The translations under genes were made by a program, and so were the position numbers. From an uncultured Gammaproteobacteria bacterium (lineage in GTDB: Bacteria > Patescibacteriota > Patescibacteriia > Magasanikbacterales > GWA2-37-8), in NCBI GenBank assembly GCA_964514995.1, contig CAZETA010000001.1, forward strand, positions 15,148 to 79,147: 64,000 nucleotides of DNA, read 5' to 3'. The notes under the pieces were generated by a model. It was not told where the DNA came from. It worked only from the letters and a program-made list of their open reading frames with translations, and did no database searches. Below, one piece after another: positions 3 to 64,000 of this stretch (positions within the stretch are counted from its first letter, which is position 1; every line of letters starts with the position of its first letter).

Positions 3-1946
3 GGCGAAGCCGCGACAAGTGTGTTGGGTCAGTTAGATGTAAATGGCGACCAGAGCTTTGTGCAAAGGAGTATTAATAGTCGGTTTGAGAGTGATTATGG
101 TTTCGAGACAGCGACCGATGTCGTATTTGATGGTACAGGGCACCGTTTGTTTGTGTCTGATCCGGATAATGACAGAGTTTTAGTTTTTAATCTAAATAGT
201 AGCAATGAGCTTGTGGACTATCATGCTGACTATGTTTTAGGGCAGAGTGATTTTGTCAGTGGTAGTTCAGACCAGGCTGACCCTGCAGTTTCTGCCACCA
301 GCATGCTGTATCCGATCGGACTTGCCCTTGATAGTGCGAACAGCCGTTTGTTTGTGGCAGACCAAGATAACAATCGCGTGCTGGTGTTTGATGTAGCAAG
401 TATTACAAATGGAGAAGCGGCGATACATGTACTGGGTCAGTCTAATTTTGCAAGTAGCACCGCTAATCAAGGGGGTGCAGTAGCCTCAACCACGATGAGT
501 GTGCCTAATTATTTGCTCTATGCTAGCAGCACATTATATGTCTCTGATCAGAGTAATCACCGCGTTCTCGTGTTTGATGTTTCAGATATTACTGACGGTG
601 AAGGGGCTGTGCATGTTTTGGGCCAAGTAGATTTTACGAGCGGTACCGCTAACCAAGGTGGCGCTATAGCTTCCACTACCATAAACAGACCTGAAGGTTT
701 AGAGTATGACGGCGTTAATAACAATTTATTCGTTGCAGATAATGGGAACAAGCGTGTCCTAGTGTTCGACGTTTCAGACATTGCTGATGGTGAGGGGGCT
801 GTGCACGTATTAGGGCAAGCAGTTTTTACCACAGGTAATGCCGCTGTTACAGCGACTGGTCTTAGTTCGGCCGAGGGGATTACGTATGACAGCGCCCACA
901 ACAATTTATATGTTGGGGACAAAAGTAATAGTCGCGTGCTCGTGTACAATATATCAACTATTGTCGATGGTGAGGCAGCTGTAGCTGTGTTGGGTCAGGC
1001 TGATTTTACAAGCAATGTTGACATTTCTCCACCTACGGCAAGCTCGTTAAACGGTCCAGATGGCATGGATTTCGACACAGACAGGCATGTTTTATACGTA
1101 GTTGATGAAAACGCAAACAGAGTTGTTTTAATAAAGCTCATCAAACTACCGACATCTTCTTTGCCTAGTATTACCGCCGGAGCGAGTTTTAATCAATCTG
1201 TCGCTGCTTCAAATGTGCAGGGTACGGCAAGTTACAGTGTGAGCAGCGGCTCTATTCCTAACGGTTTAAGTTTGGCAGCCGGTACGGGCGCAATTACTGG
1301 TGTACCGAATGTTCCTGGTACATTTAATTTTACGATTTCTGCTACAGACAGTTTCGGAGATGGCAGTGTATTTTCTGATAGTCAATCTTACTCAATCATA
1401 GTCTCAGCTGCTCCTGGCGGAGGCGGTGGAGGTGGCGGAGGCGGTGGAGGTGGTTTTATTTCTCCGATTTCTCTAACTCCGAATGTGCCAGTAGTAGTGT
1501 TGCCGCCAATCACCGGTAGTCAGATAAATCCTCCGGTATTACCGCCTAGCCCTGAACAGAAAAAGTCTGCAGCCATAGCAAAAGTTGATACTCTCCTTAA
1601 GACAGTAAAATTAGGTCAAGTCAGTAGCAAAGTATTAGAGCTGCAAACACAATTAAAGAGCCTGGGTTATTTTCCTGCAAGTTTTAAACCAACTAAGACG
1701 TATGGCAGCCTGACAGCCGCGGCTGTGAAAAAATATCTAGCTGATAAAAATAAAAAACCGGTTGTTTCAAAAAGTTTAGATGAGTTGGTAAAAACTCTCA
1801 AACCCGGCCAGCAGAGTGATTTGGTGAAACAGTTACAAACTGAACTCAAAAAATTGAAATTTTTCCCAGCCAATATAGCAGCTAATGGTGTGTATGGCCC
1901 GGCAACTAAAGCAGCCGTAGCTAAGTACCTTGCTTCAAAAAGATAA
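3..1946 (+). CDS. Surface protein, 5'-partial. NHL-type beta-propeller repeats, a He_PIG-like putative Ig domain, a poly-Gly linker and two C-terminal PG_binding_1-like peptidoglycan-binding repeats.
   Basis: The frame is open from the window start (GEAATSVLGQLDV matches the repeat unit). About 60-aa modules recur, each with a [RK]VLV[FY][DN] ... DGE[AG]AV[HA]VLGQ motif. The He_PIG-like segment is NGLSLAAGTGAITGVP...FNFTISATD. G13 run. Two copies of L[KQ]..L[KG][YF]FP...G.YG..T..AV.KYL. Confidence 0.6.
   Translation, partial: GEAATSVLGQLDVNGDQSFVQRSINSRFESDYGFETATDVVFDGTGHRLFVSDPDNDRVLVFNLNSSNELVDYHADYVLGQSDFVSGSSDQADPAVSATSMLYPIGLALDSANSRLFVADQDNNRVLVFDVASITNGEAAIHVLGQSNFASSTANQGGAVASTTMSVPNYLLYASSTLYVSDQSNHRVLVFDVSDITDGEGAVHVLGQVDFTSGTANQGGAIASTTINRPEGLEYDGVNNNLFVADNGNKRVLVFDVSDIADGEGAVHVLGQAVFTTGNAAVTATGLSSAEGITYDSAHNNLYVGDKSNSRVLVYNISTIVDGEAAVAVLGQADFTSNVDISPPTASSLNGPDGMDFDTDRHVLYVVDENANRVVLIKLIKLPTSSLPSITAGASFNQSVAASNVQGTASYSVSSGSIPNGLSLAAGTGAITGVPNVPGTFNFTISATDSFGDGSVFSDSQSYSIIVSAAPGGGGGGGGGGGGGFISPISLTPNVPVVVLPPITGSQINPPVLPPSPEQKKSAAIAKVDTLLKTVKLGQVSSKVLELQTQLKSLGYFPASFKPTKTYGSLTAAAVKKYLADKNKKPVVSKSLDELVKTLKPGQQSDLVKQLQTELKKLKFFPANIAANGVYGPATKAAVAKYLASKR
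130..1100 (+). repeat. Tandem imperfect ~180-nt coding repeats (NHL blades) inside the surface-protein gene.
   Basis: Blocks such as gtgtttgatgtttcagatattactgacggtgaaggggctgtgcatgttttgggccaa (about 570-630) and gtgttcgacgtttcagacattgctgatggtgagggggctgtgcacgtattagggcaa (about 760-820) are clearly related at DNA level. Confidence 0.5.
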
Positions 1947-1958
1947 ACTCTGATAAAT

Positions 1959-1988
1959 AAAACCCGACAATCATCCTGTCGGGTTTTT
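1959..1988 (+). terminator. Rho-independent terminator after the surface-protein gene.
   Basis: aaaacccgacaa tcatcc tgtcgggttttt: 10-bp GC-containing stem followed by a T-run. Confidence 0.6.
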
Positions 1989-1991
1989 AGG

Positions 1992-2020
1992 TTGACAAAG
2001 CGCCTAAATCCGTTTACTAT
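1992..2020 (+). promoter_or_regulatory. Candidate sigma70-like promoter for uvrB.
   Basis: TTGACA at 1992-1997, 17-nt spacer, then TACTAT, about 40 nt upstream of the uvrB ATG. Confidence 0.35.
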
Positions 2021-2060
2021 ACCCCCATACAAACCGAGCAATCGGCGATTTTGCATTTTT

Positions 2061-3977
2061 ATGTCATTATTTCAATTAAAATCAAAATTCCAACCAGCAG
2101 GGGATCAACCGGAGGCCATTAAAAAATTGATGGCTAGTTTGGAGAAGGGTAATAGGTACCAGGCACTGTTGGGTGTGACTGGATCTGGCAAGACATTTAC
2201 TGTAGCCAATGTCATTAGCCAGTTCGATAAGCCGGCGCTTATCATGGCGCCAAACAAAGCTTTGGCTGCCCAGCTGTATCGTGAGTATAAGAATTTTTTC
2301 CCTGAGAATTCAGTGAATTATTTTGTATCGTACTATGATTATTATCAGCCCGAGGCATATATTCCTACCAGCGACACTTATATCGAGAAGGAATCCATGA
2401 TCAACGAGGAGATAGATCGGCTGCGCCATCAAGCGACGAGTGCGCTCATGTCTCGCAAAGATGTGATCGTGGTCGCGTCCGTCTCTTGTATCTATAATCT
2501 TGGTGTACCGGTCAATTATTTTGACGCGGCTTTACATTTGGAAGTAGGGCAGCCGATGGTGCGGGCGGATTTGATGCGGCAACTTTTAAAATTACAATTT
2601 GCACGTACGCCGGGAGCGGTTGAACGCGGTACATTTCGCGTCCGCGGTGATGTATTTGAAATTGCGCCGGCTTCCGAGAAATTTGTTTATCGTATAGAAA
2701 TAATTAATCAAAAAATTGGGGAAATTGCCGTCACTGATACGCTCACCCGAGTCGTTAAGGAGAAGCCGACGGAAGCGGTGATTTTTCCGGTCAAGCACTT
2801 TGTTTCTTCTGAACCGCAAATAAAAGAAGCGCTCAAAGAAATTAAAGTCGAATTAAAAGATCAGTTGGCATATTTTAAGAAAAAAGAATTATACCTGGAG
2901 GCAGAACGTCTGGAACGCAGAACGAGATATGATATGGAAATGATTCAGACGCTGGGTTTTTGTCATGGCATCGAAAATTATTCCCGTCATTTGGCTGGCA
3001 AGCTAGCTGGCGATGCGCCCGATACGTTGCTTTCATATTTCCCTTGGAAAGAAGATAAAAATGGCGTGAAGAGTCCGGACTTTCTGACTATTATGGACGA
3101 ATCGCATATCGGACTGCCGCAAGTGCGCGGCATGTATGCGGGTGATCGGAGCCGCAAAGAAACCCTAGTGCAATTCGGATGGCGGTTGCCCTCAGCCTTG
3201 GATAATCGACCGCTCAAGTTCGATGAATTTGAGAAACGGGTCGGCCAGGTAGTCTTTACCTCCGCTACGCCTGGAGATTTCGAGATGCAGCATTCATCTG
3301 TGATAGCGGAACAGGTGATTCGTCCGACTGGCCTTATCGATCCGCCGATTGAGGTCAGGCCTGTATTTGATACAAAAACTAATCGCGGACAGGTTGATGA
3401 TATTATTAAAGAAATAGAAAAAATTGTGGCTCTGGGAGAGCGGGCGATTATCAATGTCCTGACCAAAAAAATGGCTGAGGAGTTATCGGAATTTTTGAAA
3501 CAAAAGAACTTTTCCGTTAATTATTTACATTCGGATGTGAAGACGTTGCAACGCACGGAAATTCTTATGGATTTCAGGCAGGGCAAATTCAATGTGCTAA
3601 TCGGTGTTAATTTGTTGCGTGAAGGCCTGGATTTACCTGAGGTGACACTCGTCGCCATCATGGATGCGGACAGAGAAGGCTTTTTGCGCAGCGAGGAATC
3701 GCTCATGCAGACCATGGGTCGTGCCGCGAGAAATGTGAAAGGCAGCGTCATTCTCTATGCTGATACCATTACTCGGTCCATGAGAAATGCCATGAAAGAA
3801 GTGGAGCGAAGAAGAAAATTACAGATTGCCTACAATGAAAAACATGGCATTACGCCGCAGACGACCCATAAAGACATAGAACAGTTTTTGGATATCCCGG
3901 AAGCAACTGAAGCGGAAATTCAGTCTCAAGGTAAACGACAAATGCCGATGTTAAAAAATAAAAAGAGTAAAAAGTAA
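2061..3977 (+). CDS. uvrB: Excinuclease ABC subunit B.
   Basis: N-terminus MSLFQLKSKFQPAGDQPEAIKKL is like E. coli UvrB. Walker A GVTGSGKT, helicase motifs, and a C-terminal UvrB/UvrC interaction region. Start moved to the ATG at 2061 (the track start at 1992 is TTG). Confidence 0.9.
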   Translation: MSLFQLKSKFQPAGDQPEAIKKLMASLEKGNRYQALLGVTGSGKTFTVANVISQFDKPALIMAPNKALAAQLYREYKNFFPENSVNYFVSYYDYYQPEAYIPTSDTYIEKESMINEEIDRLRHQATSALMSRKDVIVVASVSCIYNLGVPVNYFDAALHLEVGQPMVRADLMRQLLKLQFARTPGAVERGTFRVRGDVFEIAPASEKFVYRIEIINQKIGEIAVTDTLTRVVKEKPTEAVIFPVKHFVSSEPQIKEALKEIKVELKDQLAYFKKKELYLEAERLERRTRYDMEMIQTLGFCHGIENYSRHLAGKLAGDAPDTLLSYFPWKEDKNGVKSPDFLTIMDESHIGLPQVRGMYAGDRSRKETLVQFGWRLPSALDNRPLKFDEFEKRVGQVVFTSATPGDFEMQHSSVIAEQVIRPTGLIDPPIEVRPVFDTKTNRGQVDDIIKEIEKIVALGERAIINVLTKKMAEELSEFLKQKNFSVNYLHSDVKTLQRTEILMDFRQGKFNVLIGVNLLREGLDLPEVTLVAIMDADREGFLRSEESLMQTMGRAARNVKGSVILYADTITRSMRNAMKEVERRRKLQIAYNEKHGITPQTTHKDIEQFLDIPEATEAEIQSQGKRQMPMLKNKKSKK

Positions 3978-3986
3978 ATTAATTCT

Positions 3987-6482
3987 ATGGAAGATAAAAT
4001 CGTAATAAAAAAAGCCAGAGTACATAATCTCAAAAACGTATCTTTGGAAATTCCAAAAAATAAGATGACGGTATTTACCGGTGTGTCTGGCAGTGGCAAG
4101 TCATCGCTGGCTTTTGATACCATTTTTGCCGAGGGGCAGCGTCGGTATATAGAATCGTTGTCTCCGTATGCTCGCCAGTTTTTGGGACAAATGGAGCGCG
4201 CGGATGTCGACGAGATCACTGGTTTGTCACCGGCGATTGCCATTGGTCAGAAAGCGTTGAGCCATAATCCTCGATCCATTGTCGGAACCCTGACAGAAAT
4301 TTACGATTATTTCCGTGTGCTCTATGCCAGACTCGGTGAAGTCTTTTGTCCTCAGTGTGGACTCAAAATTGAAAAATTATCACCCGAAGAAATGATCGAT
4401 ATTATTTTGGGAATGGCGAAGGAATTAAAGGAACCGACCGTGACCGTATTATCGCCAGTCGTGCGCGGTCGTAAAGGTGAGTACTACCAGATGTTGTATG
4501 ATTTTCTAAATGAAGGTTTTGAGCAGGCGCGGGTGGACGGCACAGTACATTCACTCCATGATCGGATAGAATTGTCGCGGCACAAGGCTCACAATATTGA
4601 TGTGGTTATTGACCGAGTAATGACGAGCGACGAGACCCGGTTGTTTGAAGCGGTAGAAAGCGCCTTGCAGCACAGCAAGGGACTCGTCACGGTTTTGTTT
4701 GGCGAAAAAACAAAAAATCCGACTGAGCGTCTACTCTCCAGCCATTGGTCTTGTCCGGCTGATGGGTTTTCTTTTCCAGAAGTTGAGCCAAGATTATTCT
4801 CATTCAACAGTCCGGCGGGGGCGTGTGTTGCTTGTGGCGGCTTAGGTAAGGTGGAAGCATTTAGTAAGGAAATTTGTCCTGAGTGCCAAGGCAAACGACT
4901 TAAGCCGGAATCTTTGTCTGTACGGATTAAAAATAAAAATATTTATGAGGTTTCTTCGCTGACCATTGAAGAAGGATATGAGTTTTTCAAGGAGTATGGC
5001 AAGAAACTCAACGAACGCCAGATGATGATCGCGCACAATGTTATTAAAGAAATTAATGATCGCTATAAATTTTTGTTGGAAGTTGGTTTGGATTATATTA
5101 CGCTGACACGTGAAGCGCATACCTTGTCTGGCGGGGAAGCACAGAGAATTCGGCTGGCTTCTCAGATCGGCTCGCATCTTTCAAACACGCTATATGTGCT
5201 CGATGAGCCGACCATTGGTTTGCATGAACGCGATACGGAACGCCTCGTCAATACTTTGAAATCATTACGTGATGAAAATAATACGGTGATTATTGTGGAG
5301 CACGATGAACGGACGATCAAAGAATCCGATTATTTGGTGGATCTTGGCCCGATGGCTGGTGAACTGGGCGGGGAAGTGGTCTACAGCGGACCAACCAAAG
5401 ATATTACCAAAGAAAAAAATAAATCATTGACGCTAGAGTATTTAACCGGAGAAGTCGAGATAGAAGTGCCGAAAAAACGCCGTTGGAAAGAGACAGAAGA
5501 AATTTCTATTGTGGGCGCGCGGGCCAACAATCTGAAAAATATCAATGTCAAAATTCCGCTGCGAAAATTTGTGGTAATTTCCGGTGTTTCCGGGGGTGGT
5601 AAATCATCGCTTCTGTACGATGTCCTCTATGAAAATATTGCCAGAATAAAAAGCAGATTTAAAAAATTGGAGGATGTGAGCAAGATTACGGGGACTGAAT
5701 ATGTCGACAAAGCGGTGATTGTTGACCAGTCACCAATTGGCCGTACACCAAGATCAAATCCTGCTACCTATACTGGTATATTTACCCCGATTCGTGATTT
5801 TTATGCGAGTTTGGAAGAAGCAAGAATAAGAGGGTATACGCATTCTCGTTTTTCTTTTAACCGTCCTGGTGGGCGCTGTGAGTCATGTGAAGGTGCAGGA
5901 TTTAACACGATTGAAATGCATTTCATGCCAGCGGTAGAAGTGCCGTGTGAAGTCTGTCATGGCAAACGGTTTAGCCGTGAGACCTTGCAAGTCAAACACA
6001 AGAACAAAAGTATTGCTGATGTCTTGGAGATGACGATTAGTGAAGCCATTAAATTTTTTGAGCATATTTATCAAATTACTGATAAACTAAAGGTATTACA
6101 AGAAGTTGGGCTTGGTTATCTACGTTTGGGACAAAGTGCTACTACCTTGTCTGGTGGTGAGGCGCAGCGCATCAAGCTGGCTCGCGAACTCACAGTCCCG
6201 CTAGGAAAGAAAAATTTGTATTTGCTTGATGAGCCGACGGTTGGTCTGCATTACCACGATATTGAATTGCTTTTGGCAGTACTCAACAAGCTGGTAGAAA
6301 AGGGAAATTCGGTCGTGGTGATTGAGCATAATTTGCATATGATCAAGTGTGCGGATTATATTATAGATATGGGTCCAGAGGGTGGCGCCAAAGGGGGAGT
6401 CGTTGTCGCCAAAGGCACGCCCGAAGAAGTAGGAGATAATCCTAATTCATATACGGGTATGTATTTGAAGGAGTATCTTTAA
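3987..6482 (+). CDS. uvrA: Excinuclease ABC subunit A, a short 831-aa form.
   Basis: N-terminus ...ARVHNLKNVSLEIPKNKMTVFTGVSGSGKSS is like E. coli UvrA. Two ABC modules (LSGGEAQR twice), Zn-finger Cys pairs, and a 10-nt gap after uvrB. Confidence 0.9.
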   Translation: MEDKIVIKKARVHNLKNVSLEIPKNKMTVFTGVSGSGKSSLAFDTIFAEGQRRYIESLSPYARQFLGQMERADVDEITGLSPAIAIGQKALSHNPRSIVGTLTEIYDYFRVLYARLGEVFCPQCGLKIEKLSPEEMIDIILGMAKELKEPTVTVLSPVVRGRKGEYYQMLYDFLNEGFEQARVDGTVHSLHDRIELSRHKAHNIDVVIDRVMTSDETRLFEAVESALQHSKGLVTVLFGEKTKNPTERLLSSHWSCPADGFSFPEVEPRLFSFNSPAGACVACGGLGKVEAFSKEICPECQGKRLKPESLSVRIKNKNIYEVSSLTIEEGYEFFKEYGKKLNERQMMIAHNVIKEINDRYKFLLEVGLDYITLTREAHTLSGGEAQRIRLASQIGSHLSNTLYVLDEPTIGLHERDTERLVNTLKSLRDENNTVIIVEHDERTIKESDYLVDLGPMAGELGGEVVYSGPTKDITKEKNKSLTLEYLTGEVEIEVPKKRRWKETEEISIVGARANNLKNINVKIPLRKFVVISGVSGGGKSSLLYDVLYENIARIKSRFKKLEDVSKITGTEYVDKAVIVDQSPIGRTPRSNPATYTGIFTPIRDFYASLEEARIRGYTHSRFSFNRPGGRCESCEGAGFNTIEMHFMPAVEVPCEVCHGKRFSRETLQVKHKNKSIADVLEMTISEAIKFFEHIYQITDKLKVLQEVGLGYLRLGQSATTLSGGEAQRIKLARELTVPLGKKNLYLLDEPTVGLHYHDIELLLAVLNKLVEKGNSVVVIEHNLHMIKCADYIIDMGPEGGAKGGVVVAKGTPEEVGDNPNSYTGMYLKEYL

Positions 6483-6503
6483 GAATAATTAACAAATACA
6501 TAT

Positions 6504-7349
6504 ATGAAAAAATTATTTATTTTTTTAGGGGGAGTAGCAGTATTGCTGATTACCGTTGTCTTATTTAGAAAATTAGACAATACAGCACCGCCAATTTCTG
6601 ACAATAATCCGCCGCCAATTTTGGAAGATAATGTTGGTCTCGTAGTGGAAAATGTCCACACAAATGACTTACTTAGTTCACCGCTTAAAATCACCGGTTA
6701 TGTGAACGGTGGTGGGTGGGGCGGTTTTGAAGGTCAGGTAGGCACAGTCAGTCTTCAGGATAGTGCGGGTAATGAATTATATATTGAACCGCTCACGGCT
6801 ACGACTGAGTGGATGACAACCACGGTGCGTTTTGAAGCAAATTTGGAATACGTTACGCTTGATCAGTACGGTAAACTTATTTTTAGAAATGAAAACCCAA
6901 GCGGCGAGCCGTCTCGAGATAGAGAAGTGATGATAGAAGTACGACTAATACCCGCGGTCGGCATGTTAAAAGTGCAGTCTTATTTTAGTAACAGTCAGCT
7001 TGATCCGGAGGCAACTTGTGAAAAAGTTTTTCCAGTGGATAGGATTGTAGAAAAAACTAGCGCTGTAGGCAGGGTAGCTTTAGAAGAATTGTTAAAGGGG
7101 CCGAAGCAGATAGAAAAAGGTAAAGGTTATGAAACAAGTATCAACCCAGGAGTGCAAATAAATAGTCTTACAATTACAGGGGGTATAGCTAAGGTTGATT
7201 TCAATGACGCTTTGACTGCGGGAGTAGCCGGGTCATGTCGAGTGGGTATGATTCGTTTACAGATAGAGCAAACGCTCAAACAGTTCCCGACCGTAAAAAG
7301 TGTGGTGATTTCAGTAAACGGTAGAACAGAAGATATTTTACAGCCATGA
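6504..7349 (+). CDS. Membrane-anchored or secreted protein with a Gmad2 Ig-like segment and a GerMN-like C-terminal domain.
   Basis: N-terminal TM/signal segment (KKLFIFLGGVAVLLITVVLF). Motifs LKITGYVNGGGWGGFEGQV and C-terminal SCRVGMIRLQIEQTLKQFPTVKSVVISVNG. The stop overlaps the uvrC start by 4 nt. Confidence 0.45.
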   Translation: MKKLFIFLGGVAVLLITVVLFRKLDNTAPPISDNNPPPILEDNVGLVVENVHTNDLLSSPLKITGYVNGGGWGGFEGQVGTVSLQDSAGNELYIEPLTATTEWMTTTVRFEANLEYVTLDQYGKLIFRNENPSGEPSRDREVMIEVRLIPAVGMLKVQSYFSNSQLDPEATCEKVFPVDRIVEKTSAVGRVALEELLKGPKQIEKGKGYETSINPGVQINSLTITGGIAKVDFNDALTAGVAGSCRVGMIRLQIEQTLKQFPTVKSVVISVNGRTEDILQP

Positions 7350-8503
7350 GTCTGCAAGAAATAGCAAAACAATTTCCTTTAACCCCAGGGGTATATATCT
7401 GGCGAGATAAAAATCAAAAACCCCTGTATGTAGGCCGAGCAACTTCTTTGCGACGGCGGGTTTTGCAATACTTCAGAAAAGATATTGATCGGCGGATTGG
7501 TGAGATGGTTTCTTTGGCACAGTCGATTGAGTTTATTCAGACTGATACTGTCCTGGAAGCCATTATTCTGGAAGCAAACCTGATAAAGGAATATTGGCCA
7601 AAATACAATATTGAAGAGAAGGATGATAAGTCTTTTATTTTTTTTGTTATTCCGAAGACTGATTTTCCCAAGCCGTTTATGGTTCGGGGTAGAGAACTCA
7701 AAAATTTTCCAATTCCTGAAGATAGAGTATTTGGTCCTTACCAAAGTTATGCCACCCTAAAAACAGTGCTAAAAATTGTTCGTCGTATTTTCCCCTACAG
7801 CACCTGTAACCAAACAGGTAAAGCTTGTTTTGATTATCAAATCGGATTGTGTCCGGGAGTTTGTATGGGTGCTGTAAGTAAAAAAGATTATCAAAAAAAC
7901 ATCGCTAATTTATTGTTATTTTTCAGAGGCGAAAAAAATAAACTACTAAAGAAACTTTCCAAAGATAATCCTGAAGCCGCGTTGCATCTCAAACATATCC
8001 AGGATGTAAGTTTGATTTCCCGTGAAGATTTGAATATGAGCGGCAATTTTAATCGCATAGAAGGCTATGACATCTCGCATTTTGCGGGTAAGGAAGTATA
8101 TGGCTCAATGGTGGTTTTTACCAATGGCGAGCCTGATAATAAGGAATATAGATTGTTTAAGATAAAAACGGTGACTAATAACGACCTTGACGCGCTCAAG
8201 GAAATGCTCGAGCGCCGGCTGAAGCATACTGAATGGCCAAAGCCGGATTTAATCCTCATAGACGGTGGTAAGCCGCAGATAGACTATTTGCGCCCGCTCA
8301 TGGAGCAATATCAATTCAAGGCGCCATGGCTGGGACTGTCAAAATTAAATGGCGATCATTTGGTATTTCCTGCAGGAATAAAAAATGTGTTCAAAGACTT
8401 GGCAGAGACGATCAAGCGCACACTACAGCAGGTGCGGGATGAGGCACATCGGTTTGCTAATCGTGGGAGAAGCAGAGGATATTTTAATAGGAATTTAAGG
8501 TAG
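7346..8503 (+). CDS. uvrC: UvrC-like excinuclease subunit C. GIY-YIG plus RNase H-like endonuclease domain, with no C-terminal HhH.
   Basis: GVYIWRDKNQKPLYVGRATSLRRR is the GIY-YIG motif. IEGYDISHFAGKEVYGSMVVFTNGEPDNKEYRLFKIK matches the UvrC endonuclease domain. 385 aa with a clean stop. Confidence 0.75.
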   Translation: MSLQEIAKQFPLTPGVYIWRDKNQKPLYVGRATSLRRRVLQYFRKDIDRRIGEMVSLAQSIEFIQTDTVLEAIILEANLIKEYWPKYNIEEKDDKSFIFFVIPKTDFPKPFMVRGRELKNFPIPEDRVFGPYQSYATLKTVLKIVRRIFPYSTCNQTGKACFDYQIGLCPGVCMGAVSKKDYQKNIANLLLFFRGEKNKLLKKLSKDNPEAALHLKHIQDVSLISREDLNMSGNFNRIEGYDISHFAGKEVYGSMVVFTNGEPDNKEYRLFKIKTVTNNDLDALKEMLERRLKHTEWPKPDLILIDGGKPQIDYLRPLMEQYQFKAPWLGLSKLNGDHLVFPAGIKNVFKDLAETIKRTLQQVRDEAHRFANRGRSRGYFNRNLR

Positions 8504-8511
8504 CTCAGAGG

Positions 8512-8540
8512 TTGACAGGAGGTGTTTTTCAAGGTATAAA
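8512..8540 (+). promoter_or_regulatory. Candidate sigma70-like promoter.
   Basis: TTGACA (8512-8517), 17-nt spacer, TATAAA (8535-8540). Confidence 0.4.
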
Positions 8541-8656
8541 TTGTCGATGTTTGTTCTTTGTAATTGGGTTTTGTATATATGGGCTTGGAATTTTAGAATA
8601 TTTAATAAAATATTTTGAGATTCTTAGCTCATCTAACACAAAAGAAAAAGGTGCCA

Positions 8657-39964: not shown

Positions 39965-40036
39965 TAGCCCCAACGGGAATCGAACCCGTGTTACCACATT
40001 GAAAGCGTGGTGTCCTAGCCACTAGACGATGAGGCC
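39965..40036 (-). tRNA. tRNA-Glu (anticodon UUC).
   Basis: The reverse complement GGCCTCATCGTCTAGTGGCTAGGACACCACGCTTTCAATGTGGTAACACGGGTTCGATTCCCGTTGGGGCTA folds as a cloverleaf with anticodon loop CTTTCAA. CCA is not encoded. Confidence 0.75.
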
Positions 40037-40132: not shown

Positions 40133-40206
40133 TGTCAGGGTAGCTCAGTTGGTTAGAGCACGGGATTCATAACCCCGAGGTCGAGAGTTCGAATCTCTCC
40201 CCTGAC
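40133..40206 (+). tRNA. tRNA with CAU anticodon (elongator Met or lysidine-type Ile2).
   Basis: GTCAGGGTAGCTCAGTTGGTTAGAGCACGGGATTCATAACCCCGAGGTCGAGAGTTCGAATCTCTCCCCTGACA. Perfect acceptor and T stems, anticodon loop TTCATAA. G1-C72 paired, so not initiator-like. Confidence 0.8.
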
Positions 40207-40245
40207 ACAGTTGTCAAAAACCGCCATTTATTTTAATAATTTCTA

Positions 40246-41856: not shown

Positions 41857-41950
41857 ATCCGGGCGGCAACCTTTCGGTCGCCCTACCACCTTTCGGAGGT
41901 AGACTACGTCAGCAGAACCCGGTCAAAAAGACCGTTTTACTGACGTAGAT
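41857..41950 (-). other. Structured leader-like region: two adjacent hairpins with cc-tttc-gg loops, then a 9-bp TGACGT-containing stem enclosing a smaller hairpin.
   Basis: gggcggc aacctttcg gtcgccc; ctaccacc tttc ggaggtag; ctacgtcag ...cggtc aaaaa gaccg... ctgacgtag. Confidence 0.4.
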
Positions 41951-42199
41951 TTGATGACCATGCCTTAGGTTGCCCTAAAGTTTAGGTCGCTAATTGTACC
42001 GACTTATAAAAGTCGATTTCATTTTAACATACAGGAAAAATAAAGCCAATGTAGCGATATGCACAAGCTACAATCGACTCTAAACCGACGAAATCGATGC
42101 CGTATATCGTCGATTAGTGTAAACATAGAGAAATTTACTTGCTGAGATTAATAGTTTGAGTTATGGTAAGCTTAATTCAGCTTTTCTATAATTAAATTA

Positions 42200-62140: not shown

Positions 62141-62533
62141 ATGAATCATGAAGCTAGAAAAATTAATAGCTTTGTTGATTTGAATGCATGGCAAGAAGGA
62201 CATAAATTAGTTTTGCAAATTTACGGGATTACTAAAAAATTTCCTGCAATAGAAAATTTCGGTTTGATAAGTCAGATGCAAAGAAGCGCTGTATCAATTA
62301 CCTCAAATATAGCTGAAGGTTTTGGCAGACAAACATTCAAAGATAAAGTGCATTTTTATTATATTGCTTCCGGATCGTTGCTGGAACTGCACAATCAACT
62401 TATAATTGCTAAAGATCTGAAATATATCTCAGTAGAAGAGTTTAATAAGATTGGCAATCAATTAATTGTCACCCATAAGATAGTTAACGGCTTAATTAAA
62501 AGTTCAAAATCTCGCATTATTCAAAATTCTTAA
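62141..62533 (+). CDS. Four-helix-bundle protein (23S rRNA intervening-sequence / S23 family).
   Basis: FVDLNAWQEGHKLVLQIYGITKKFP ... RSAVSITSNIAEGFGR signature. Confidence 0.75.
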   Translation: MNHEARKINSFVDLNAWQEGHKLVLQIYGITKKFPAIENFGLISQMQRSAVSITSNIAEGFGRQTFKDKVHFYYIASGSLLELHNQLIIAKDLKYISVEEFNKIGNQLIVTHKIVNGLIKSSKSRIIQNS

Positions 62534-62892: not shown

Positions 62893-62916
62893 GACGGCCT
62901 ACCAGGGCCGTTTTTG
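62893..62916 (+). terminator. Rho-independent terminator after trxA.
   Basis: acggcc tacca gggccgt ttttt. Confidence 0.55.
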
Positions 62917-62971
62917 CTTGATTATTTATATGAAAGTAATTATACTATTACAATAATCAATGCGAATTAGT

Positions 62972-64000
62972 ATGAGTAAATACGACCCAAAAAAGATAGA
63001 GCCAAAATGGCAAAAGTACTGGGAAAAGAATAAAACCTTCGAAGCCGGAGAAGACAAAACCAGAGAAAAATTCTATGGTTTGATTGAGTTTCCGTATCCG
63101 TCGGGTGAAGGGTTGCATGTTGGCCATCCACGTCCGTTTACGGCTATGGATGTGATTTCTCGCAAGAAGCGAATGGAGGGAAAAAATGTTTTATTCCCGA
63201 TTGGTTTTGATGCTTTCGGGTTGCCAACCGAAAACTTTGCCATCAAAACCGGCAAAGCCCCGGCAGAAGTAACGAAAAAAAACATTGCCAATTTTACGCG
63301 CCAGCTCAAGATGCTTGGCTTTAGTTTTGATTGGTCGCGGCAAGTTGATACGACTGATCCGAATTATTATCGCTGGACTCAGTGGTTGTTTTTACAATTT
63401 TACAAACACGGTTTGGCGTATAAGAAGAATCAACCGATCAACTGGTGTCCAAAAGATAAAATTGGCTTAGCTAACGAAGAGGTGGTAGGCGGTTGTTGTG
63501 AACGCTGTGGCACACCGGTAGAAAGTAGAAATAAAGAACAGTGGATGCTCGCGATTACCAAATATGCGGAAAAATTACTAGCAGGTTTGAAAGACGTAGA
63601 TTATATTGAACGCGCGCGAGTGCAACAGGAGAATTGGATTGGCAGAAGCGAGGGGGCAAGAGTTGCTTTTGAAATTAAGTCACAAAGCGAGCCAACATTC
63701 TATCAATTTTCTGAGCCGGGAGCTATTAAGGACGGCGAACCATTTACCGAGCGTGATACTATTGTCGCTATCGTTAAGCATTGGAAAGAAGATAAGTATT
63801 TAGGTCTTAAATGGAAGAAGGTGGCTTGGGAGACTTTTATAACCGGCGGAGTAGAACCAGGCCAAACTCCAGAAGAAGCTGCAAAAAGAGAAATCTACGA
63901 AGAGACAGGCTATAAAAATATTCACTTTGTAAAAAAAATTGGCAAGATACATTCCAAGTTTTTTCATGTACCGAAAAAACAGAATATGTTTATCCATCCT
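62972..64000 (+). CDS. leuS: Leucine--tRNA ligase, 3'-truncated by the window end. The open frame continues into a Nudix-fold segment.
   Basis: [22 protein letters not shown] (HIGH), a Zn-knuckle (CPKD ... CCERCGTPV), NWIGRSEG. The frame has no stop up to 64000 and is absent from the track only because it lacks a stop. Confidence 0.85.

Follow-up and report, generated by a model that had tools for sequence, protein, structure and literature searches.

A Nudix module inserted at the editing-domain hinge of a leucyl-tRNA synthetase and its subfamily in Patescibacteria

Few enzymes are as conserved as the aminoacyl-tRNA synthetases, and their editing domains, which belong to the few catalytic additions they carry, are central to work on translational fidelity. 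Here, we describe the leucyl-tRNA synthetase (LeuRS) gene leuS at the end of a 64,000-nucleotide stretch of DNA from an uncultured bacterium (contig CAZETA010000001.1 of assembly GCA_964514995.1, positions 15,148 to 79,147; the whole stretch is called the window). In this gene, a Nudix module of ~145 residues with an N-terminal linker is inserted in frame just past the first strand of the CP1 editing domain, and the module belongs to a distinct Nudix subfamily that is partnered with LeuRS and widespread in Patescibacteria. Both folds, as well as accessory domains on synthetases, were already known, whereas a dedicated Nudix subfamily inserted repeatedly, and in several copies, at the CP1 hinges is not a known arrangement. 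The architecture suggests that an essential translation enzyme has an extra catalytic job. The explanation preferred here, to which we give a probability of roughly 55% as a whole, combines an insertion architecture, an editing-competent LeuRS of ~1100 residues, a dedicated subfamily and a module that would act as a pyrophosphohydrolase beside the synthetase.

The leuS frame runs from the ATG at position 62972 to base 64000 through 343 codons without a stop and then off the window end, in agreement with the initial annotation, which had been made from the sequence alone. Its N-terminal part carries the class I LeuRS core, with the HIGH signature and a LeuRS-specific profile match: the NCBIfam model TIGR00396 (leuS_bact) aligns with its positions 1-238 of 843 to residues 4-240 (E 8e-105, 351.8 bits; the model's cutoff of 548 bits applies to full-length proteins and is out of reach for a fragment of 343 residues), and Pfam PF00133 (tRNA-synt_1) matches residues 12-216 (E 5e-26). 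The canonical class I LeuS with HIGH motif and NWIGRSEG that had been recognised from the sequence alone is thereby borne out, and the region of the zinc knuckle is present as well. In class I core, HIGH motif, Zn-binding knuckle and the NWIG strand leading into CP1, the protein resembles the bacterial LeuRS of E. coli, T. thermophilus and N. gonorrhoeae. Compared with the N-termini of LeuRS from Patescibacteria, this portion is 65-92% identical, and the window ends in a bona fide bacterial-type leuS of a genome like those of Patescibacteria, also known as the Candidate Phyla Radiation. Only positions 1-20 of the editing-domain profile PF13603 fall inside the window (residues 220-239); they directly precede the module, whose position is therefore just within CP1, at its N-terminal boundary.

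The initial annotation had also proposed that a Nudix fold is encoded in the leuS frame, and the domain annotation that it recommended as a check gave a significant match. PF00293 (NUDIX) covers residues 267-335 with 47.2 bits (E 2.8e-12, gathering cutoff 21.1), and the C-terminal fragment on its own scores 49.9 bits (E 4.1e-13). A hidden Markov model (HMM) of the module family aligns with the window copy over positions 3-106 of 145 (157.5 bits, E 3e-48), the window end cutting off ~40 module residues, and the copy shows everything by which the family is defined here, i.e., the HMM match, the motifs and the location at a CP1 hinge in LeuRS. The Nudix box reads G292-x5-Q298-x7-R306 E307 I308 Y309 E310 E311 T312 G313 Y314 and agrees with the consensus GX5EX7REUXEEXGU at all positions but the first Glu, which is Gln298, just as the intact REUxEExGU core and the Glu-to-Gln exchange had been read at first. 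The three metal-ligand residues E307, E310 and E311 are all present, and 18 of the 19 conserved family positions covered by the window copy are retained, the sole deviation being Met339 (Table 1).

Two readings of the junction had been offered initially, namely that the Nudix fold replaces the editing domain or that it is inserted, with the editing domain following beyond the window, and the homologues speak for the second. Four reference pieces (the N-terminal half of the catalytic core, catN; the editing core; the module; and the C-terminal half of the catalytic core, catC) were mapped with HMMER onto the host open reading frames (ORFs). A scan of species-representative genomes with an alignment of six module sequences matched 151 genomes on two peptide patterns, and 80 loci were kept; a fragment search likewise returned many LeuRS of Patescibacteria with both PF00293 and PF13603. 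Across the LeuRS of the family, the module sits at four alternative sites: before the NWIG strand (site A), just after it (site B, as in the window), between the editing core and the return strand (site C), or inside catC (site D). Most kept loci read catN, editing core, Nudix, catC (~950 residues). In the loci L001 and L002, the order is catN, Nudix, editing core, Nudix, catC. Their first module starts at residue 242-243 in a mapping that placed the start of the window module at residue 240, and the PF13603 profile picks up again at position 20 after this first module. When full-length L002 served as the query, 14 complete proteins of 1104-1304 residues were found with a module at residue 238-240, and the junction NWIG[RK]SEGA..F....EPTFYQF.EPG.IK.GEPF.ER is common to the window and these 14 site-B proteins. 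All 14 continue with KVFTTRxDT ~165 residues past the module start and then have another Nudix module ahead of the remaining LeuRS sequence. Together with L001 and L002, every one of the 16 full-length proteins with this junction has the order catN, Nudix, editing core, Nudix, catC, and the modules closest to the window copy are site-B modules of this kind (75% identity to those of proteins P0129 and P0131, 73% to that of P0128).

We therefore conclude with high confidence, from these sequence comparisons, that the window module is an insertion that interrupts CP1 after PF13603 position ~20 and does not replace the editing domain, and the pattern seen in 16 of 16 places the expected editing domain of the window gene ~60 codons past base 64000. 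A true replacement, which would make this LeuRS editing-deficient, as the Mycoplasma mobile enzyme is, is very improbable. It would fit a window that stops before any editing core, and a LeuRS without CP1 does exist (PDB 3ziu), which, like an isoleucyl-tRNA synthetase with an N-acetyltransferase domain (NCBIfam NF040702), illustrates that the CP1 region, and class Ia synthetases in general, tolerate the loss or gain of whole domains. In addition, the linker leading into the module is similar to the one that site-C proteins have behind their editing core (EPT[FY]YQ..EPG), and an early reading of the window gene as one with a deleted editing core was built on this resemblance and dropped once the site-B clade had been found. 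Yet the same-junction proteins retain the editing core after the module, the window module is closest to those very modules, positions 1-20 of the CP1 profile are kept, and no full-length family member without an editing core was present among the ~200 examined. Unlike the Mycoplasma mobile enzyme, the LeuRS-Nudix homologues keep CP1 and add a pyrophosphohydrolase fold.

An artefact is hardly credible, whether a chimeric assembly or a frameshift that fused a truncated leuS with a separate Nudix gene. The GC content at third codon positions (GC3) of the module, 0.35, is somewhat under that of catN (0.44), and the relative L081 has an in-frame stop within its module. However, 0.35 is only slightly below the 0.39-0.47 of other checked window genes and was computed on 106 codons only, the frame is unbroken, and the same junction recurs, collinear, in at least 17 independent assemblies that come from different studies, a comparison of assemblies rather than of reads that excludes a chimera. 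The remainder of the gene was sought in further collections: an exact DNA scan of metagenomes gave no match, a protein scan gave a best match of 60%, a scan of genome contigs gave no match above 69%, and an exact look-up of the neighbouring thioredoxin protein returned no record. The contig of the closest relative (P0001, locus L082) ends at the same place, and that of P0010 (locus L081) ends within the module. In L081, which shares the site-B junction, the in-frame TGA (~1560-1580) stands precisely where LKWKK has its conserved Trp, and the frame continues normally. This TGA could be a sequencing error, the mark of a pseudogene or a codon read as sense in that organism. Another relative, P0007 (450 residues, catN 84% identical to the window), has NWIGKSEG, a short IKVF and then a long low-complexity stretch rich in Thr, Asn and Gln with no editing domain, and reflects either a chimera at the contig level or an insertion of a very different kind.

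Homologues also indicate how the window gene would continue, and this downstream layout is taken from them with high confidence. The gene would run for another ~760 codons, through the remainder of the module and an intact editing domain, probably through a second, canonical Nudix module at the C-terminal CP1 hinge, then through the half of the catalytic core with KMSKS and, finally, the anticodon-binding domain, giving a LeuRS of ~1100 residues that would still aminoacylate and edit. In an alignment of 83 sequences, FTTRxDT, AHDxRD, RQRYWG and KMSKS are invariant or nearly so; KMSKS (K884, S886 and K887 of P0131) is nearly invariant among the homologues, and their anticodon-binding domain is matched by PF08264. 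With the motifs of the editing and synthetic sites this well kept, the LeuRS-Nudix homologues look like working, editing-competent enzymes. AlphaFold2 predicts for full-length P0131 a model in which both modules and CP1 are folded (predicted local distance difference test, pLDDT, 91.5; predicted template modelling score, pTM, 0.77), and this model superposes on E. coli and T. thermophilus LeuRS with template modelling (TM) scores of 0.79-0.84, the tRNA complexes 4aq7 and 2bte being among the structures compared. None of the solved LeuRS structures superposed on it carries Nudix-type inserts. The site-B module of P0131 is itself predicted to adopt the alpha/beta/alpha Nudix fold (pLDDT 91, pTM 0.85). 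While the homologues thus resemble bacterial LeuRS in their editing motifs, KMSKS, anticodon-binding domain and overall model, all solved LeuRS have 760-876 residues and no extra enzymatic domain, whereas the LeuRS-Nudix homologues have 940-1560 residues with one to three modules of ~145 residues at the CP1 hinges or in catC. The initial remark that this is not a standard architecture therefore holds for every characterised or solved LeuRS but not for the databases, where the architecture is common in Patescibacteria.

To delimit the family, 1.84 billion cluster representatives were searched exhaustively with a profile. At E<=1e-30 this gave 139 representatives and at E<=1e-10 it gave 395, with only generic Nudix proteins beyond, and ~110 of the top 150 representatives are LeuRS. 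A LeuRS may carry one, two or three copies (e.g., L005 and L024 with ~1540-1560 residues), and the copies fall into two paralogous types, 'GQT' and 'GED', two-copy proteins usually having one of each. Shared motifs of the family are VER, KHW.EDKY.GLKWKK, GG.E.GQT, E..EETG[YF] and F[FY]HVPK..NR. The GED type has a canonical Nudix box, and the GQT type, to which the window copy belongs, reads GG.E.GQT..EAA.xE..EETG[YF]...F[FY]HVPK..NR. When modules were classed by site and type, the nearest neighbour lay in the same class for 14/14 B-GQT, 14/16 A-GQT, 20/28 C-GQT and 127/143 C-GE copies, while copies inside one protein are only ~34-49% identical. This clustering and the low identity within proteins point to old paralogues that arose from few insertion events, and they rule out a freely mobile or recently tandem-duplicated module. 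At short range the distribution is patchy, since the closest LeuRS relatives by catN (77-92%) lack the site-B module, and some of them have no module at all. Two database proteins, P0246 (379 residues, three modules) and P0360 (467 residues), consist of tandem family modules with no synthetase part detected and may be whole genes or fragments. Eight further loci (L013, L014, L023, L040, L057, L069, L073 and L078) carry site-B inserts of ~145-215 residues between catN and the editing core that are matched by neither the module HMM nor the reference pieces and may be another inserted domain.

Conservation of the module matches that of the synthetase core, and selection on its sequence is strong: at whatever site, GQT modules share 62-69% identity with the window copy, compared with 48-72% for the host catN. 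In a set of 268 complete modules, the Glu residues at the three metal-ligand positions are conserved in 99%, 95% and 100% of copies, the box Gly (column 76, the Gly of EExGU) in 100%, and R24, K99, N102 and R103 in 96-99%. That the module has repeatedly been built into LeuRS, in up to three copies and with conservation at the level of the core, argues for a function important to these minimal-genome bacteria.

The link between LeuRS and the module is independent of fusion, as can be seen from the gene neighbourhoods of seven standalone family members, four of which lie at or near leuS. P0272 is encoded 2 nt upstream of leuS, P0277 lies 3 nt ahead of a leuS with an unbroken editing domain and no internal Nudix, the standalone copy of L041 overlaps the leuS start, and P0259 is part of a metS-TatD-Nudix-HD-Nudix-leuS cluster. 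In this last locus (L083, GCA_023245955.1 contig, 482-8549), metS is followed by an unknown gene, TatD DNase, P0259, two small ORFs, an HD/YfbR-like 5'-nucleotidase, an unknown gene, a generic MutT-like Nudix gene and a leuS whose product has 823 residues and no insertion; synthetases are here mixed with hydrolases of the nucleotide-salvage type. Standalone members of 160 residues bear the same motifs as the inserted modules. Outside LeuRS, the module also occurs in P0370 (643 residues), a class II prolyl-tRNA synthetase (ProRS) of the archaeal/eukaryotic type, where it occupies residues ~387-519 between the anticodon-binding and C-terminal domains.

As to what the module may do, its structural and sequence neighbours lean weakly towards pyrophosphohydrolases of the diadenosine polyphosphate (ApnA) and RppH type. 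No curated Nudix family was matched, all NCBIfam matches lying far below cutoff: the RppH/NudH models PRK00714 gave at best 26-29 bits for the window copy against cutoffs of 116-259, YtkD (TIGR02705) gave 25-28 against 154, and the profiles of MutT 8-oxo-dGTPase and of ADP-ribose, NADH and CoA pyrophosphatases gave 14-22 against 80-250. The best family member, P0277, reached 39.8 bits against a cutoff of 118 with an RppH-type model, over nearly its full length (E 4e-10), and the nearest NCBIfam models were consistently RppH/NudH-type RNA and ApnA pyrophosphohydrolases. The best PDB sequence match was the lupin diadenosine tetraphosphate (Ap4A) hydrolase, in the box region only, and a PDB sequence search and Foldseek returned generic Nudix matches only. 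Among the neighbours compared, the values were 16.3 for 2azw, 13.3 for the Ap6A hydrolase Ndx1, 12.8 for both DDP1 and the diadenosine polyphosphatase Rv2985, 12.6 for NudI, 12.2 for NADH pyrophosphatase and 12.1 for ADP-ribose pyrophosphatase, so that the margin between ApnA hydrolases and other Nudix classes is small. The top neighbour, 2azw, is a standalone, uncharacterised MutT/Nudix protein of Enterococcus faecalis from structural genomics, is 15-18% identical to the module and gives no functional transfer. Identity to known ApnA/polyphosphate hydrolases and to RppH/NudH (Ndx1, Rv2985, DDP1/DIPP, the lupin and Aquifex Ap4A hydrolases and E. coli RppH) is 13-21%; unlike these, the GQT module has Gln at the first box Glu, a variable box Arg and motifs of its own (VER, KHW.EDKY, LKWKK and F[FY]HVPK..NR), and it misses the curated cutoffs widely. 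Asymmetric Nudix hydrolases of Ap4A and ApnA carry a specificity Tyr ~16-18 residues after the box. These weak indications from family and fold are compatible with the (di)nucleotide or capped-RNA pyrophosphatase activity suggested in the initial annotation.

Synthetases are a main source of Ap4A, which is formed from aminoacyl-adenylate and ATP and is broken down by Nudix enzymes, RppH among them (PMC10148737, PMC4734340). In the preferred explanation, the module would be a Mg2+-dependent pyrophosphohydrolase that works beside the synthetase, carried on the mobile CP1 neck and near both the synthetic site and the tRNA acceptor end. Its substrate would most likely be a nucleoside or dinucleoside polyphosphate, e.g., the ApnA/ApnN by-products of aminoacyl-adenylate and NTP, or a related adenine nucleotide. 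This activity is proposed with lower confidence than the architecture.

A different use of the same chemistry would be that of an RppH-like domain for RNA 5'-end pyrophosphohydrolysis or decapping, which strips a triphosphate or Np4/NAD-type caps from docked tRNA-Leu or other RNA bound to the synthetase. PRK00714 and YtkD are consistently the nearest NCBIfam models, as in the near full-length alignment of P0277, and sites A, B and C flank CP1, the part of LeuRS that contacts the tRNA acceptor end. However, the scores are far under the family cutoffs, and tRNA 5' ends are normally left as monophosphates by RNase P. The ProRS module and the fourth LeuRS site, within catC, moreover indicate that placement relative to the acceptor end is not uniform, and we regard a decapping role as having only a slim chance.

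Several observations weigh against the preferred explanation. Since the window stops within the module, the editing domain and the further module expected downstream in this gene are predicted and not seen. The box of the GQT type is non-canonical, with the first Glu always replaced by Gln and a varying box Arg, and ~5% of all copies have Gln for the middle Glu, with QETGY in place of EETGY in L001, L002, L015, L032, L044 and L060. The window copy has Met at family column 103, the Arg of the 'NR' motif, which is Arg in 256 of the 268 modules (96%) and Met in none of them. A one-base change from AGG would account for this ATG; Met339 could be a genuine loss of a conserved residue or a sequence error. 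LeuRS belongs to the group of synthetases with low Ap4A production (PMC10148737), and clean-up of by-products therefore does not explain why LeuRS is the host. Finally, other enzymes are inserted in the catC of these LeuRS as well, namely a HAD phosphatase (PF13419/PF00702) and alpha/beta-hydrolases (PF12697, PF00561, PF06821 and PF12146), in proteins of 1300-1720 residues (L024, ORF 1137-5753, residues 1022-1176; P0122, P0127, P0145, P0151, P0160 and others), which fits a less specific picture of LeuRS as an insertion-tolerant scaffold.

The altered box residues, the QETGY copies, Met at the conserved Arg103 and the failure to match curated enzyme families could all be accommodated if the module were non-catalytic, either as a ligand sensor (of Ap4A, (p)ppGpp or ADP-ribose) that tunes LeuRS, or as an RNA- or tRNA-binding or structural spacer at the CP1 hinge. 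Yet the near-complete conservation of the metal-ligand Glu, all of which the window copy has, that of several basic residues able to hold polyphosphate, and the sharing of motifs with 160-residue standalone members, as would be expected of enzymes, speak for catalysis, and a non-catalytic module is unlikely, if worth keeping in view. The HAD and alpha/beta-hydrolase inserts would also fit an opportunistic origin, in which a house-cleaning or salvage Nudix gene beside leuS was absorbed into permissive surface loops of this essential and highly expressed gene in streamlined genomes, its product acting independently of aminoacylation. The salvage-type neighbourhood of P0259, with its TatD DNase and HD 5'-nucleotidase-like genes, the three of seven standalone genes with no synthetase neighbour and the patchiness among the closest LeuRS relatives of the window would agree with such an origin. 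An opportunistic origin is rather improbable, however: the partnership is specific and recurs, with one Nudix subfamily at four LeuRS sites, two paralogous types kept together and most of the best family members in LeuRS, a second synthetase, ProRS, captured the module independently, and conservation equals that of the synthetase core.

A step beyond the pyrophosphohydrolase beside the synthetase would be that the Nudix modules form an additional catalytic site mechanistically coupled to the chemistry of LeuRS, and occasionally ProRS, across the Candidate Phyla Radiation. It could be speculated that such a site hydrolyses, in cis, adenylylated by-products or alarmones from the synthetic site, or processes the 5' end of docked tRNA, and we consider this coupling possible but doubtful. 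If true, it would be a new synthetase-borne quality-control or signalling activity alongside CP1 editing; a module acting on ApnA alarmones or tRNA would reveal a new way in which translation is coupled to nucleotide signalling or quality control. The standalone, operon-linked and fused forms would then provide a natural system for testing coupling, given a module that acts on by-products or tRNA.

A fusion of comparable logic is that of NMN adenylyltransferase, an enzyme with the HIGH-motif fold, to a Nudix domain, which is cited as a regulator of NAD+ levels (PMC7824862). There, too, an adenylyl-transferring enzyme of the HIGH superfamily is joined covalently to a Nudix domain that degrades nucleotides of the same product family, and the fusion serves as a precedent for such a pairing (PMC7824862). 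Unlike the internal insertion in LeuRS, the NadM-Nudix protein is a terminal fusion, involves another Nudix subfamily and substrate (NAD/ADP-ribose) and has no link to translation. A full-text literature search found no paper on a LeuRS-Nudix or other synthetase-Nudix architecture, with most subscription journals outside its coverage, so that this is absence of evidence only. Hundreds of LeuRS-Nudix proteins are present in public databases, some since 2015 (e.g., P0237, from a GW2011 Nomurabacteria genome), where they are labelled 'leucine--tRNA ligase' or 'class I tRNA ligase family protein'. Current annotation labels thus hide an extra enzyme in LeuRS.

Table 1 Features located in the window, with positions counted from its first base
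Feature	Position	Strand	Evidence
Standalone Nudix gene, 143 residues	27558-27989	-	PF00293, E 9.5e-20
tRNA gene	39965-40036	-	Rfam tRNA, 62 bits
tRNA gene	40134-40207	+	Rfam tRNA, 71 bits
LOOT RNA motif RF03000, full-length	41865-41988	-	Rfam, 84 bits (gathering 46), E 2e-14
'23S rRNA-intervening sequence protein' family gene, between infB and thioredoxin	62141-62533	+	PF05635, E 1e-36
Terminator hairpin of thioredoxin, upstream of the promoter candidate	62894-62911		Consensus scan
Sigma-70-like promoter candidate (TTGATT, 17 nt spacer, TATACT), 25 nt upstream of leuS start	62918..62946	+	Consensus scan
leuS N-terminal half of class I catalytic core, residues 1-233	62972..63670	+	TIGR00396, PF00133, Patescibacteria identity
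HIGH motif HVGH, residues 49-52	63116-63127	+	Read from sequence
First beta-strand/linker of CP1 editing domain, residues 220-239 ('site B')	63629..63688	+	PF13603 positions 1-20
NWIGRSEG, residues 221-228	63632-63655	+	Read from sequence
Inserted 'GQT'-type Nudix module, residues 238-343 (N-terminal linker and ~2/3 of the Nudix fold)	63683..64000	+	PF00293, family HMM
Nudix box G292-Y314	63845-63913	+	Read from sequence
Met339 (ATG) at family column 103, 'NR' motif Arg	63986..63988	+	Alignment, 268 modules

The separate standalone Nudix gene to which the initial annotation had drawn attention is indeed present elsewhere in the window (Table 1). Kinship with the LeuRS module family was ruled out, as this gene has no match to the family HMM and its BLASTP likeness is confined to the box. 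Ahead of leuS, the gene order is an ordinary housekeeping set of infB, a 23S-IVS (intervening sequence) family protein and thioredoxin with a terminator-like hairpin, followed by a promoter-like site. The consensus scan near leuS gave four promoter-like sites where 0.6 were expected and one terminator-like hairpin where 0.1 was expected, all of them candidates only. The PF05635 gene is missing from the syntenic relative L082, in which the order is infB, trx, leuS. Further upstream in the window, the two tRNA genes are divergent and ~100 nt apart, and the LOOT match represents a motif of the small RNA type.

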